Assembly (NCBI GenBank): GCA_030524525.1
Contig: JAUNGI010000002.1
Span: 103,350-167,349 of the forward strand
DNA length: 64,000 nt
Direction: 5' to 3'
From: Lachnospiraceae bacterium
Lineage (GTDB): Bacteria; Bacillota; Clostridia; Lachnospirales; Lachnospiraceae
This document shows positions 10,245 to 22,323 of this stretch, piece by piece; position 1 is the stretch's first letter; each line of letters begins with the position of its first letter. A program made the position numbers and the translations under genes. The notes under the pieces were generated by a model. The model made no database searches, was not told where the DNA came from, and was given only the letters and a program-made list of their open reading frames with translations.

Positions 10245-10922
10245 ATGCAGGCCGGAAAGAAAAAAAAGATCCTTGGGATCGCCTGTGTTGCCGCACTGGC
10301 AGTTCTGACTGCCGCGCTGGGCGTTACGCTTGCGGTGCTGACCAAGGGAACGGAAAAGCGCGCGAATGTGTTTACGTTCGGCAACGTGAAGATCGAGCTG
10401 ACCGAGGACGAGTGGGATGAGCTGGAGCCGGGGGACACGATCGTTTATCCGGGCAGAACGGTAAAAAAGGACCCGAAGATTACCAACAGCGGAAAGAACG
10501 ATCTATACGCTTACATAGAAATATGGACTCCGACGGCGACGGTACGCACCGTTGCGGAGGACGGGGTGACGGTCAACGCTGCCGCGCCGTGCGAGCTGTT
10601 TGCATTTACGCCGAACAAAGGCTGGGAGGAGCTTTTCCCCAGCGATTGGGAGGAGGAGCGTACGAGCGGCGGAAGCACATATCGGGTACGGCTTTACGGC
10701 TATACCGCCGGAACGCTTGCGCCGGGAGAGAGCACGGCGACGCTGTTTGATGCCGTGACCTATGCGAATGTGCTGGAGGGTGAGCTGGAAAAGGACGCGG
10801 TTCTGCAAATGCCGGTCTATGCTTACGCCATCCAGTCGGATTATCTGAACGAGACCGGAAGCGAAGGAAAGGAAAAAATGACCGACGCATTCCAAAAATA
10901 CAGAGCGGCGGAGACAAACTAA
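10245..10922 (+). CDS. TasA/BsaA-like matrix/fibre protein with a SipW-dependent-type signal peptide (paralogue 1)
   Basis: 225 aa. The signal region KKKKILGIACVAALAVLTAALGVTLAVLTKG is followed by ANVFTFGNVKIEL, then YPGRTVKKDPKITNSGKNDLYAYIEI and a C-terminal VYAYAIQSD. A GGAGGAG RBS lies upstream. Confidence 0.8.
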   Translation: MQAGKKKKILGIACVAALAVLTAALGVTLAVLTKGTEKRANVFTFGNVKIELTEDEWDELEPGDTIVYPGRTVKKDPKITNSGKNDLYAYIEIWTPTATVRTVAEDGVTVNAAAPCELFAFTPNKGWEELFPSDWEEERTSGGSTYRVRLYGYTAGTLAPGESTATLFDAVTYANVLEGELEKDAVLQMPVYAYAIQSDYLNETGSEGKEKMTDAFQKYRAAETN

Positions 10923-10937
10923 AAGGAGGTTCGCGGT

Positions 10938-11474
10938 ATGAATAAGAAAAAGATTTTGCTCCTGATTCCCGCCTATCTCCTGTTGCTGGCGGCTTCCTTT
11001 GGCATTACTTACGCATATCTGATCAGTAAGGAAACCAAGGTGAACGAATTTACGGTCGGAGAAAATACCGTGGAGGTGAAGGAGACCTTCGAACCGCCGG
11101 AAGAACTGAAGCCGGGCGCAAGCATCCGAAAGGAAGTACAGATCACGAATACCGGAAACCTGCCCTGCTTCGTGCGCATCCGGGCGGACTTTTCCGACAG
11201 CAAGGCAAAGGAATTTTGCGAATATACGATCAACGCTTCTTGGGCGGACGGACAGGACGGCTGGTTTTATTACAACAAGCTCGTTCCTCCGGGCGAGACG
11301 ACGGAGCCGTTCTTTGACGGCGAGATCGTGATCAAAGAGCAGAAGGCGGACGGCAGCGCATACGATCAGGCGGATATGATCGAATTTGATATTCTGGTTT
11401 ATGTGGAATCGTGTCAGCACAGCGACCACACGGGCGACTGCGCGGACGACGAGTATCGCACGATATGGCAGTAA
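10938..11474 (+). CDS. TasA/BsaA-like protein with a SipW-type signal peptide (paralogue 2, shortest)
   Basis: 178 aa containing NKKKILLLIPAYLLLLAASFGITYAYLISKETKVNEFTVGENTVEV, then KPGASIRKEVQITNTGNLPCFVRIRA. An AAGGAGG RBS lies upstream. Confidence 0.8.
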   Translation: MNKKKILLLIPAYLLLLAASFGITYAYLISKETKVNEFTVGENTVEVKETFEPPEELKPGASIRKEVQITNTGNLPCFVRIRADFSDSKAKEFCEYTINASWADGQDGWFYYNKLVPPGETTEPFFDGEIVIKEQKADGSAYDQADMIEFDILVYVESCQHSDHTGDCADDEYRTIWQ

Positions 11475-11487
11475 AGGAGGGCGAGAG

Positions 11488-20220: not shown

Positions 20221-20266
20221 AGCGAAACGGAAATAGGCGAAACAGAAATAAAAGGAGGATTTTCTT

Positions 20267-21055
20267 ATGAGAAAGAAAAAAAACGTGTTGATCGGTGCAT
20301 TGAGCATCGGTCTGATCGCGGCGCTCGCGATCGGCGGAACGGTGGCGTTCCTTACGGATTCGGAGGATGCGACGAACAGATTCAGCATGGGCGATCTGGA
20401 CATTAAGCTGGAGGAGCCGGAGTGGGACAACGGCGGCGACCCGGTAGACCCGGACGATCCGGACGGCCCGAAGACGCCCGGCGACGGCGACGATCTGCTG
20501 CCCGGCGACGTGAGAAAGAAGGACCCGACCGTTACAGCGGTGGACGGCGACAGCTACATGAGAGTGATCATGACGATCCAGAACAAGGACGGCAGCGCGA
20601 TCACGGATCCCGACCGCCTTTCGAAGATCATGGAAACGATTTACTATGCCGACCCGGTGATCGAGGAGACGGCAAGTCTTTCGTCGGAGGAGCTTGCGGA
20701 CGCGGGGTATACGACCGTAAACGAGTCGATCTTTACTTTGGATAGTACAAGATCTGCAGAAAATGTATTCTATTACAATTACACGAACGCCGCGACGGGC
20801 GATATCTTCAAAAAGGACGCCGTAGCCGTGCTCTTTACGAACATCGTGATCCCGACCGATTGGAACCGGACGGAGCTTGCGCTGCTCGGCGAGTACCAGA
20901 TCGTTCTGGAAGCACAGGCGATCCAGTCGGCAAACTTCGCGTCGGCGGCGGATGCGTATACCGCGCTTGACGGCGAAGCGGCAGACGGCACGCTGTCGGT
21001 GGACTACAAGACCGTAGGCTCTCAGACGACCATCAATGCGGGCGGCGGCAACTAA
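20267..21055 (+). CDS. TasA/BsaA-like protein with a SipW-type signal peptide (paralogue 4)
   Basis: 262 aa containing GGTVAFLTDSEDATNRFSMGDLDIKLEEPEWDNG, then LPGDVRKKDPTVTAVDGDSYMRVIM and a C-terminal LEAQAIQSANF. Confidence 0.8.
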   Translation: MRKKKNVLIGALSIGLIAALAIGGTVAFLTDSEDATNRFSMGDLDIKLEEPEWDNGGDPVDPDDPDGPKTPGDGDDLLPGDVRKKDPTVTAVDGDSYMRVIMTIQNKDGSAITDPDRLSKIMETIYYADPVIEETASLSSEELADAGYTTVNESIFTLDSTRSAENVFYYNYTNAATGDIFKKDAVAVLFTNIVIPTDWNRTELALLGEYQIVLEAQAIQSANFASAADAYTALDGEAADGTLSVDYKTVGSQTTINAGGGN

Positions 21056-21114
21056 GCGGAAGCGGCTTTTGCCGGTAGGTTTGCTTGGCGCGGCAGAAAA
21101 AAGGAGGTGACTTG

Positions 21115-22323
21115 ATGAAGAAATCCGCTGTTTATTCCGCTTTGTGCGCGGCGCTGCTGTGCATTTTCCTGCTGACGTCGGGGCTGACCTTCGCCTCTTG
21201 GAGGGCGCAGGGGGAGACCGTCAATGCCGTCAGCATGGCGAGCGTGAAAGGACAGATCATAGAGGAGTTCGAACAGGATCAGGTCGTCTATCCCAACGGA
21301 ACGGTCGATAAGGTCGTTCAGGTAAAAAACACCGGAACGGTGGACGCCCTGCCGAGAGTGAAGGTCGTGACGGCGTGGGGCGACGGCAGGGACGAAAGCG
21401 GCAGGCTGATCGTCGATCCGGAGCTTTCTACGGAAAACATTGAGATCACATACAACACGGAGCAATGGATCTTCCGCCCGGAGGACGGCTGGTTTTACTA
21501 CAGCCGGGTATTGAAGCCGGGGGAGACGACGGAGCCGCTTTTGAAAAGCTTTCGGGTCAGCGAAGAAACCGGCGGGGCTTATCGAAACAAACAGGCGGAC
21601 GTCGTCGTTTCGATGGAAATGGTTCAGGCTGCCGGAGGCGGGCCGGCTTACTGGAACACCTCCTATGAGGAACTGGGAATCGTCTATGCGGAGAGCGGGC
21701 AGACCGAGCTTGTGACGACGGTGGACTTTCACGGTCCCGAGCAGGGCTTTTCCTTTGACGTAAACGGCGGCGACCTGTTTGCCGACTTCAAGAATCTGGT
21801 TCCCGGCGAGAGCCGAAGTCAGGTCGTGGAGGTGGCGAACCGCTGGAACGAGAAAACGGAGCTTTTCCTCTGGGCAAAGCTGACCGGGCAGCCGCAGGCG
21901 ACCGAGGAAACCAAGGAACTGATCGACCGGCTCCTGCGCGAGTACGCGACGATCGTCGTGACCGACGAGGCGGGGAACGTGGTGTACGACGGCGCGGTCT
22001 GGGGCAACCCGGAGCTGGATTCCCATGGAAACGATTCCATGAAATATCCCTACAGTCTCGGCAGCTTTGCCGCCGGACAGACGAAAAAGCTTCGCGTTAG
22101 TCTGTATCTTGACCCGCAGACGGACAACGAATATCGCGAGCTTTTGGGCTATATCACATGGGCGTTCTCGGCGGAGGGCGACGATTCGGGCGGAACCGAT
22201 TATCCGGATCCGCCGAAGACCGGAGACTCTTTCTCGGTCGTTGTCTTTGCGGTCTTGGCGCTGCTCTCTCTGATCCTCTTTGTCGCGGCGCTGCTCCGGC
22301 TGAGGAGATCGGAAAAACAATAA
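21115..22323 (+). CDS. Two-domain TasA-like protein with a C-terminal sortase sorting signal (PPKTG + TM helix + basic tail)
   Basis: 402 aa. The N-terminal half (VNAVSMASVKGQIIEEF, YPNGTVDKVVQVKNTGTVDALPRVKV, MEMVQAAG) resembles paralogue 2. The second half (NLVPGESRSQVVEVANRWNEKTELFLWAKL ... YRELLGYITWAFSAEG) is camelysin/TasA-like. PPKTG (22210-22224) is followed by DSFSVVVFAVLALLSLILFVAALLRLRRSEKQ. Confidence 0.8.
   Translation: MKKSAVYSALCAALLCIFLLTSGLTFASWRAQGETVNAVSMASVKGQIIEEFEQDQVVYPNGTVDKVVQVKNTGTVDALPRVKVVTAWGDGRDESGRLIVDPELSTENIEITYNTEQWIFRPEDGWFYYSRVLKPGETTEPLLKSFRVSEETGGAYRNKQADVVVSMEMVQAAGGGPAYWNTSYEELGIVYAESGQTELVTTVDFHGPEQGFSFDVNGGDLFADFKNLVPGESRSQVVEVANRWNEKTELFLWAKLTGQPQATEETKELIDRLLREYATIVVTDEAGNVVYDGAVWGNPELDSHGNDSMKYPYSLGSFAAGQTKKLRVSLYLDPQTDNEYRELLGYITWAFSAEGDDSGGTDYPDPPKTGDSFSVVVFAVLALLSLILFVAALLRLRRSEKQ

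Follow-up and report, generated by a model that had tools for sequence, protein, structure and literature searches.

A seven-gene SipW operon with five TasA/BsaA-like paralogues, a giant adhesin and a sorting-signal-bearing subunit: a candidate multi-subunit, wall-anchored fibre system in a Lachnospiraceae bacterium

The window analyzed here is a stretch of 64,000 nucleotides (nt) from a Lachnospiraceae bacterium (GenBank assembly GCA_030524525.1, contig JAUNGI010000002.1, positions 103,350 to 167,349). The system in question is a set of seven closely packed genes on its forward strand, at 10245-22323, which encodes five small TasA/BsaA-like proteins (P1 to P5), a giant adhesin and a SipW-type signal peptidase. 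We consider it probable, though far from assured, that this operon specifies a SipW-dependent surface fibre of the TasA/BsaA type, which would be built from five specialized subunits and tethered to peptidoglycan. The open reading frames (ORFs) agree with the list of an earlier reading of the same DNA, made from its letters alone (the original prediction), so that the seven-gene layout proposed there stands. The genes are listed below, with the Asn/Glu/Lys triad of each small protein, which is discussed later (aa, amino acids).

10245-10922, + strand: P1, 225 aa, TasA/BsaA-like subunit, triad N41/E54/K75
10938-11474, + strand: P2, 178 aa, minimal TasA/BsaA-like subunit, triad N36/E49/K65
11488-18732, + strand: giant adhesin, 2,414 aa from an ATG behind GGAGG
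18719-19291, + strand: sipW, 190 aa, SipW-type (ER/archaeal-type; ER, endoplasmic reticulum) signal peptidase I
19312-20220, + strand: P3, 302 aa, TasA/BsaA-like, acidic insert of ~65 aa, triad N39/E54/K129
20267-21055, + strand: P4, 262 aa, TasA/BsaA-like, shorter acidic insert, triad N37/E50/K85
21115-22323, + strand: P5, 402 aa, N-domain triad N37/E50/K66, candidate basal subunit

By their profile matches, the five small proteins are members of the TasA/BsaA superfamily with SipW-type signal regions, and they are encoded beside a SipW-type peptidase. When compared with TIGR04090, the BsaA family model (curated cutoff of 60 bits), P2 was the sole paralogue over the cutoff (64.6 bits, 1.1e-17); P5 (54.5 bits, 1.4e-14), P3 (24 bits) and P1 (19 bits) scored below it, and P4 gave no match. 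These four are tied to P2 by jackhmmer and, for the N-domain of P5, also by hhalign. TIGR04088, the model of the SipW-cognate signal region, was matched over its cutoff by P4 (3.4e-8) and P3. The gathering score of Peptidase_M73 (PF12389, 22.5) was exceeded by P2 (28.3 bits, 1.9e-6) and P4 (25.9 bits, 1.1e-5), and no match to this Pfam family was obtained with P1, P3 or P5. The signal peptidase scored 97.9 bits (5.1e-28) against TIGR02228, the ER/archaeal-type signal peptidase I model, whose cutoff is 51.85, and it fell below the cutoff of the Bacillus SipW equivalog (7e-23; 81 vs 190). Hence the assignment of all five proteins to TasA/BsaA, as made in the original prediction, was recovered by these searches, for P1 at only 9.5e-4 (TIGR04090).

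The Peptidase_M73 matches of P2 and P4, and the name "Camelysin metallo-endopeptidase" given to P1 by the Prokaryotic Genome Annotation Pipeline (PGAP), could be taken to mean that the small proteins are camelysin-type (Peptidase M73) metalloproteases. We give this explanation almost no credence. The matches span only the N-terminal 50-75 residues, i.e., the signal peptide and the first strands, no metal-binding motif was found among the conserved columns, and the family name is held to be a misidentification of CalY (PMC11580942).

The five-way alignment of P1-P5 has eight invariant residues (T28, A30, N41, E54, P69, K75, Y153 and Q197 in P1 numbering), and a T-x-A motif in the signal region is common to all the paralogues. 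The three shared blocks that had been described from the letters are real in this alignment and include the invariant N41, E54 and K75. An acidic insert, proposed earlier as the main difference among the paralogues, was indeed variable among them and sits between the invariant Glu and the PG...K block. Profile comparison with hhalign related the N-domain of P5 to P2 (99.8%, E 6e-28) and the P2 family profile to Bacillus subtilis TasA (95.5%, E 1.6e-8). In the latter comparison the N-terminal donor strand, the Gly hinge and the PG-x3-K-x-x-x-x-N-x-G block of TasA are aligned. AlphaFold2 (AF2) monomer models reached a predicted local distance difference test score (pLDDT) of 87 with P2, which was all-beta, and of 83.6 with P5.

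Of the polar residues that are invariant in the mature part of P1-P5, three are of note, namely the Asn of the N-x-F strand, the Glu with which the following strand ends and the Lys of the PG-x3-K block. An alignment of 46 P2 orthologues has just six invariant columns, which include these three, and the residues are nearly invariant in the P5 orthologues. In the cassette loci described below the triad was complete in 24/24 P1, 24/25 P2, 42/42 P3, 42/43 P4 and 38/44 P5 proteins, and another count over orthologues gave 46/46 for P3 and 52-53/54 for P4. Of 408 first-domain matches in the wider family, counted without correction for phylogeny, 298 carried both Asn and Lys, 85 carried neither, and just 25 carried one without the other. 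In the P5 orthologues that keep Glu and Lys, the loss concerned the donor Asn only (HEK twice, SEK once). A frequent loss of Lys in P1 and P2, seen in a count on a MAFFT alignment, was discarded as an artefact of alignment and assignment after re-alignment with a hidden Markov model (HMM); the occasional loss of Asn in P5 remained.

A triad of this kind is known from the Clostridium perfringens matrix protein BsaA, in which the mutation of any of N35, E56 and K74 abolishes the heat- and SDS-resistant oligomers, and only BsaA keeps it, the non-polymerising paralogues of that species being devoid of it (PMC11580942). The donor strand of BsaA comprises residues 28-38, and therefore includes N35 (PMC11580942), and that of TasA, defined by cryo-EM, also comprises residues 28-38, with A37 near its C-terminal end (PMC9674648). 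In the hhalign alignment the Glu and Lys of the paralogues correspond to TasA E50 and K68, and the Asn to A37, so that TasA has the acceptor residues without the Asn, which agrees with the reported absence of a full triad from the TasA structure. The Glu-to-Lys spacing is 16-21 in P1, P2 and P5 and 18 in BsaA; the acidic inserts make it longer in P3 and P4. We propose that cleavage by SipW would free the N-terminal strand of each subunit, which would then enter the incomplete beta-sandwich of another subunit, as in TasA and BsaA. An intermolecular isopeptide between Asn and Lys, with Glu as the catalyst, would follow, as in the "exchange and lock" of BsaA.

The wider family also contains a large sister class of small (~210-250 aa) TasA-like proteins, in which Asp and Gln replace Glu and Lys and the Asn is missing. 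Judged by these residues the class is presumably non-locking. A few of its members have names or Pfam domains that indicate LPXTG or sortase-B sorting signals.

The genes are not a peculiarity of this contig. A scan of 185,579 species genomes, one genome per species, returned 61 related loci, spread over metagenome-assembled genomes (MAGs) of Acutalibacteraceae, Oscillospiraceae and "Ruminococcus", and over Lachnospiraceae. Cultured carriers among the latter include Blautia faecis, B. glucerasea, B. acetigignens, B. ammoniilytica and Cuneatibacter caecimuris DSM 29486. All seven gene types lay within the fetched region in 17 loci, and four more lacked P1 only, because the 10-kb flank ended before P1. 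Oscillospirales MAGs, Cuneatibacter and cultured Blautia spp. together account for at least 20 genomes, counted at the species level, that have the seven-gene set. No additional conserved gene was found across the loci beyond the seven. The original prediction had called for a survey of how often the architecture occurs, and the present one counted 17 full loci among the 61. The genes are not always in the same order: with the adhesin written as ADH, window-type loci have P1-P2-ADH-SipW-P3-P4-P5, Blautia-type loci have P2-P3-P4-P5-SipW-P1-ADH, and a third type has P5-SipW-P4-P1-P2-ADH. Look-ups of exact proteins likewise recovered the same gene set at 39-58% P5 identity and in unrelated flanking contexts, and full-length relatives of P5 amounted to 54 clusters at 90% identity and ~180 clusters at 50% identity (E<=1e-30).

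In a jackhmmer survey of all the ORFs of the loci, each small protein fell into one of five groups. Single-pass phmmer gave values of 1e-27 to 1e-122 to the cognate paralogue and of 1e-5 to 1e-16 to the others; the P1 orthologues of Blautia and of locus L017 gave 1e-27 to 1e-48 to P1, vs 1e-5 to 1e-12 to the other paralogues. Such clean orthology indicates that the five paralogues are old and individually maintained, and are not recent tandem copies. The seven-gene unit persists through the differing gene orders and genomic contexts, and its having been kept together through these rearrangements is in keeping with a fibre of several components (base, shaft and tip). In L024, L022, L046 and L051 the P3-type gene occurred two or three times in tandem, and the other types were single.

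A link to the cell wall would be provided by P5, whose C-terminus consists of PPKTG (aa 366-370, nt 22210-22224), 21 hydrophobic residues and then RLRRSEKQ. P5 is a predicted sortase substrate, as the original prediction proposed, and the signal is conserved: in nearly all the P5 orthologues, which share 33-92% identity, a hydrophobic segment and then a basic tail come after an xPxTG motif (PPKTG, SPKTG, NPSTG, LPKTG and others). It is limited to the P5 group, so that no other cassette protein carries a sorting signal in any locus. PPKTG and SPKTG are proven substrate motifs of Clostridioides difficile SrtB (PMC4155245, PMC5118464). A Pfam-confirmed sortase gene adjoins the cassette in one locus with the full seven-gene set (L027:6752-7510), and others lie beside related cassettes (L056:10755-11570, L059:1076-1789, L060:12223-12858 and L063:11761-12429). 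The window also encodes a second giant protein of ~2,300 aa (45184-52206, + strand), with four YDG, three MBG_2 and Big_2 domains, which ends in LPKTGDD, a transmembrane segment and KRKKYVK; this signal indicates that surface proteins of the organism are anchored by sortase through motifs of the xPKTGD kind.

P5 differs from the other subunits in the cassette by its two domains. Its C-terminal half (aa ~190-360, window positions 21685-22200) forms a second beta domain (DLFxxFKNLvPGESRSQ...), which matched the TasA-like profile weakly (hhalign E 3e-4 to 8e-4). The family HMM hit this second domain in 60 orthologues (among loci L002-L048), with a Gln in the position of the acceptor Lys. The C-domain may be a TasA-like repeat that has degenerated and obtains its first strand in cis.

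The adhesin has no comparable anchor. It is composed of a Sec signal peptide, an unannotated N-terminal region of ~850 aa, five SpaA/CnaB-type domains, Ig-like domains and BspA-type LRR_5 (leucine-rich) repeats. No sorting signal was found in the adhesins of any of the loci, all of which have ordinary Sec signal peptides, and a search for a SipW-type signal gave matches at the level of the signal peptide only. A BsaA-like acceptor domain was also sought in the adhesins, with no significant hit, and a PDB sequence search with adhesin residues 1-900 found no relative. All the adhesins do share, by BLAST and alignment, a short motif with an invariant Asn, which follows the last SpaA/CnaB-type domain and resembles a donor strand. 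In the window it is the following.

16483-16527, + strand: donor-strand-like motif in the adhesin, SKTSHTALATNILKR, with the invariant Asn1676; putative fibre-attachment function

In the Lachnospiraceae-type adhesins the motif has the form L-T-D-T-x-x-V-R-N-x-V-I, with only 3-6 residues between it and the C-terminus; 16 of them (median 39% identity) have this tail with an invariant Arg-Asn. The window type has T-S-H-T-x4-N-I in an interdomain linker, and Ig-like and LRR domains follow. The motif is in register with the mature N-termini of the subunits, as observed when FLTDSEDATNRFS of P4 is placed against LLTDTDYVRNIVI of the adhesin. A position-specific scoring matrix (PSSM) was built from 253 genuine donor strands and was run along the adhesins. 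Out of ~1,000-1,300 positions the motif was the top one in 12 of the 16 adhesins of the Lachnospiraceae type, as it was in the more distant adhesin of L016, and it ranked first or second in three window-type adhesins, at scores of 2.5-14 bits. A precedent exists in B. subtilis, where TapA provides a donor-strand mimic to TasA and mediates wall association (PMC9674648), and on this ground the motif is proposed here as the attachment of the adhesin to the fibre. The adhesin may then be joined to a subunit through the motif, and this is the least secure part of the model. A likeness between an "EW" of the adhesin (…IVAEWNG…) and the EPEWD motif of the small proteins was also considered and was rejected, both residues being variable in orthologous adhesins.

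Several of our results weigh against the fibre proposed here. The homology to TasA covers the signal peptide and ~65 mature residues, past which P1-P5 diverge from it, and a PDB search with the broad family profile placed TasA (5of1, 8aur) at the top with E values of 0.17-0.31, which are not significant. Foldseek made no link to TasA either: the P2 model returned weak generic Ig-like hits only (E>=0.03), among them the Csu and Saf pilins, with 5of1 and 8aur absent, and the whole two-domain P5 model gave meaningless multi-domain matches with TM-scores <0.17. A PDB sequence search with the P5 profile returned nothing useful. The Asn-to-Glu spacing is 13 here vs 21 in BsaA, and the equivalence of the paralogue triads to BsaA N35/E56/K74 is suggested by motif context. 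Finally, the AF2 monomers have the N-terminal strand folded back in cis, confidently in P5, so that the triad could form an intramolecular isopeptide.

These last observations suit a different explanation, by which the locus encodes five monomeric or loosely associated Ig-like proteins, each with an intramolecular Asn-Lys isopeptide as in CnaB/SpaA-type domains, and no exchanged fibre; P5 would simply be anchored to the wall as a monomer, with the adhesin secreted independently. The models set the Asn strand beside the Glu and Lys strands (pLDDT ~92 in P5), the triad residues are identical to those of intramolecular pilin isopeptides, and the generic Ig-like Foldseek hits point the same way. 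We nevertheless find this explanation rather improbable. AF2 monomers of strand-exchange subunits routinely self-complement, and in P2 the donor segment was modelled with low confidence (40-60, vs >93 in the core). Moreover, the Asn segment aligns with the experimentally defined donor strands of TasA and BsaA, and the same triad is intermolecular in BsaA by mutagenesis. Separate monomers would also hardly account for the persistence, through rearrangements, of a unit of five paralogues, a private signal peptidase and an anchorless adhesin.

The tethering of the fibre also meets difficulties. No sortase was detected in the 64-kb window (motif scan and SrtA-seeded jackhmmer scan, with Pfam on selected ORFs), nor within 10 kb of P5 in most flanks of the window-type and Blautia-type loci. 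This fits a released matrix as in C. perfringens strain 13, with a single homopolymer, the other paralogues being accessory or regulatory and P5 and the adhesin independent, and with no common organelle of base, shaft and tip. In strain 13 BsaA polymerises alone, even in Escherichia coli, and most of the polymer is extracellular; in addition, BsaB is not part of the BsaA oligomers and srtB is dispensable, two facts that also count against the anchored heteropolymer proposed here. We regard such a matrix as unlikely, though. All five paralogues conserve the donor Asn and the acceptor Glu and Lys, whereas the non-polymerising paralogues of C. perfringens are without the triad; the sorting signal of P5 is conserved and at times sortase-linked, and the tail of the adhesin resembles a donor strand.

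The attachment of the adhesin and the order of the subunits have their own weak points. In the window adhesin the motif is internal and ranked 38 of 2,360 positions by PSSM, and over the adhesins its scores were -10 to 14 bits vs 15-33 for true donors. P1-P5 each keep donor and acceptor residues, with the consequence that the linear order is not fixed by the sequence. The base-shaft-tip fibre of the original prediction is supported in part: the conserved seven-gene unit, the P5 sorting signal and the Asn-Glu-Lys triad fit it, and the failure of Foldseek to find TasA and the cis strand of the AF2 models count against it.

Within the fibre that we favour, P5 would be the basal subunit and would be linked to the wall by a housekeeping sortase for (S/P/L)PxTG, encoded outside the window. 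P3 and P4 would probably form or decorate the shaft, since their triad is the most strictly kept, acidic inserts lie on their surface, and some genomes have P3 in more than one copy. The distal part would comprise P1, P2 and the adhesin, and the most speculative step is the capture of the latter, which has no anchor, through its Asn-bearing donor-strand mimic. The adhesin motif and the five subunits together make six donors for five lockable grooves, so that one donor would be spare in a linear chain. The loss of the Asn in some P5 proteins that keep Glu and Lys is the one triad loss that recurs in genuine cassettes, and it speaks weakly for a fibre in which P5 sits at the base and is the terminal acceptor. 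It also speaks weakly for donor strands that run tip-to-base, with the adhesin motif filling the distal groove.

A more specific version of this scheme can be formulated, which we put forward tentatively and rate as doubtful. In it the fibre would be ordered, covalently locked and sortase-terminated, and would capture the adhesin through a donor mimic of the form T-[SD]-[HD]-T-x4-N-x-[VIL]. The mimic would lie at the extreme C-terminus of the Blautia-type adhesins and in an interdomain linker of the window type, and an isopeptide bond made by its Asn would lock it in the groove of one of the TasA-like subunits. The donor strands would point tip-to-base, the adhesin would serve as initiator or cap at the distal end, and the two-domain P5 would act as the terminal acceptor, whose attachment to the wall by sortase would stop assembly. 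If this were true, it would represent a Gram-positive pathway that parallels the ordering of chaperone-usher pili and the termination of sortase pili, i.e., a pilus pathway with neither a chaperone nor a polymerising sortase.

The closest known relative is the sipW-bsaA-bsaB-bsaC system of C. perfringens (Obana 2020, PMC7395162; PMC11580942). It shares with the cassette a SipW-type peptidase, subunits of the TIGR04090 family, a large secreted accessory protein without an anchor (BsaC, with a vWA domain) and, in most strains, an LPXTG-bearing paralogue (BsaB), the gene of which adjoins srtB (PMC11580942). The Asn-Glu-Lys triad is also common to both; in C. perfringens it isopeptide-locks the donor-strand exchange of BsaA, and here it is read from the genes. 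The two systems differ in that there BsaA alone has the triad, whereas here all five paralogues do. Moreover, the anchored member of the cassette has two domains, its accessory giant is a SpaA/LRR protein with a donor-like motif and not a vWA protein, the window locus has neither a two-component regulator nor a sortase, and the conservation of its seven genes as a set extends over Oscillospirales and Lachnospiraceae.

The tapA-sipW-tasA operon of B. subtilis, and sipW-tasA-calY/CapP of B. cereus, likewise have a private SipW, and in the former the accessory TapA gives a donor-strand mimic and wall association. The differences are that TasA has A37 for the Asn and thus no covalent lock, that there is one major subunit and that no sortase signal is present; the B. 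cereus system is explicitly sortase-independent. The loci of the archaeal and bacterial TasA-like bundling pili and of AbpX/Tafi (PMC9245690; 10.64898/2026.01.04.697558) also encode donor-strand-complemented fibres, together with an anchor, a signal peptidase and a protein for the tip or for adhesion, and the bacterial ones are reported with LPXTG anchors and sortases. By their descriptions, however, they have one or two fibre subunits and calcium-dependent stabilisation, and the cassette has five subunits and an isopeptide triad.

SpaA-type sortase pili resemble the proposed fibre in the logic of base, shaft and tip adhesin, in a wall-linked basal subunit, in covalent inter-subunit bonds and in the SpaA/CnaB domains of the adhesin. 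They are polymerised, however, by sortase transpeptidation onto the Lys of a pilin motif, whereas the bond proposed here is an autocatalytic Asn-Lys isopeptide that would form after strand insertion. A sorting signal and a pilin motif in each subunit, together with a sortase of the locus, mark the SpaA type and were not found here: P1-P4 and the adhesin have no sorting signal, and the locus holds no sortase, class C included. Chaperone-usher pili (Fim, Pap, Csu) are a functional analogy, since they are ordered heteropolymers of Ig-like subunits with N-terminal donor strands, a tip adhesin and a terminator subunit. They are not homologous, and the cassette is Gram-positive, has no chaperone or usher, and its proposed links are covalent.

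The literature limits what is new here. The original prediction had assumed a single major subunit and no more than one accessory subunit in the known systems, which is out of date: BsaA/TasA genes often share operons with LPxTG-protein, SpaA, sortase and signal-peptidase genes and occur there as multiple paralogues, for which heteropolymers have been suggested (PMC11580942). Its further claim that TasA-type assembly combined with sortase anchoring was uncharacterised cannot be maintained either, as the combination was noted both there and in the AbpX preprint, which describes LPXTG anchors and sortases at bacterial TasA-like loci and an AlphaFold3-predicted strand complementation of the anchor with a fibre subunit (10.64898/2026.01.04.697558). 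The general concept of TasA/BsaA paralogue operons with LPXTG proteins, SpaA and sortase, and of heteropolymers, is therefore already contained in two preprints of 2024-2026. A literature search for this cassette, including in Blautia or Ruminococcus, found no specific description. What is specific to the cassette are five ancient subunit types that all have the triad, the two-domain anchored subunit, the donor-tagged anchorless SpaA/LRR adhesin and the occurrence in cultured gut commensals. Taken as a whole the original prediction is partly supported, its interpretation being largely sound but unproven and its claim of novelty overstated.

TasA/BsaA fibres have so far been understood as essentially one-subunit matrix polymers. 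If confirmed, the cassette would be a defined case of a multi-subunit, wall-anchored and adhesin-tipped fibre that is assembled by strand exchange and autocatalytic isopeptide locking. The carriers are abundant gut commensals with cultured strains among them, so that the hypothesis is directly testable, and the system would bear on how they attach to mucus, particles or partner cells. With its five-way specialization and its strictly conserved donor and acceptor residues, the cassette is a natural system in which to ask how subunit order is encoded, and the donor-mimic tag of the adhesin could be turned into a SpyTag-type tool for protein ligation.

With regard to expression, the intergenic distances are, in order, 15, 13, -14, 20, 46 and 59 nt, the start of sipW overlapping the stop of the adhesin gene by 14 nt. 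The overlap and the range of 15-59 nt given in the original prediction were otherwise correct, one gap being 13 nt. A GGAGG-type ribosome-binding site precedes all of the genes except sipW. The candidate transcription signals are as follows.

10082-10110, + strand: sigma-70-like promoter candidate (TTGACA-N17-TATAAA), consensus match only
10173-10214, + strand: terminator-like hairpin (GGCAGAUUU/AAAUCUGCC and U-run) inside the 5' leader, directly before the P1 ribosome-binding site
22352-22380, + strand: candidate operon terminator, a hairpin and T-run after P5, consensus match only

The promoter candidate lies just downstream of the strong terminator of the preceding gene (10010-10042). A single promoter and a single terminator for the seven genes are candidates by consensus match. 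The 5' leader (10112-10250) was predicted to fold into two hairpins (-36.3 kcal/mol, z = -2.8), of which the one at 10173-10214 may be an attenuator. A search of the leader against Rfam for a riboswitch (e.g. c-di-GMP) matched no family. The remaining PGAP names are "TasA family protein" for P2, "SipW-dependent-type signal peptide-containing protein" for P3 and P4, "leucine-rich repeat protein" for the adhesin and "hypothetical protein" for P5. Antisense ORFs of up to 1,438 aa, e.g. 13222-17538 on the - strand, lie opposite the adhesin gene; they are most likely artefacts of its G+C-rich, stop-poor frame, and nothing points to genes.

Elsewhere in the window, recA and recX are located at 36260-38078, and genes for a carboxyltransferase, an OAD beta subunit and an OADA-like carboxylase form a cluster at 39638-44929 (+ strand), which apparently encodes a Na+-translocating decarboxylase. 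An RNase P RNA of the bacterial class A was detected at 60530-60901 (+ strand, 264.7 bits).

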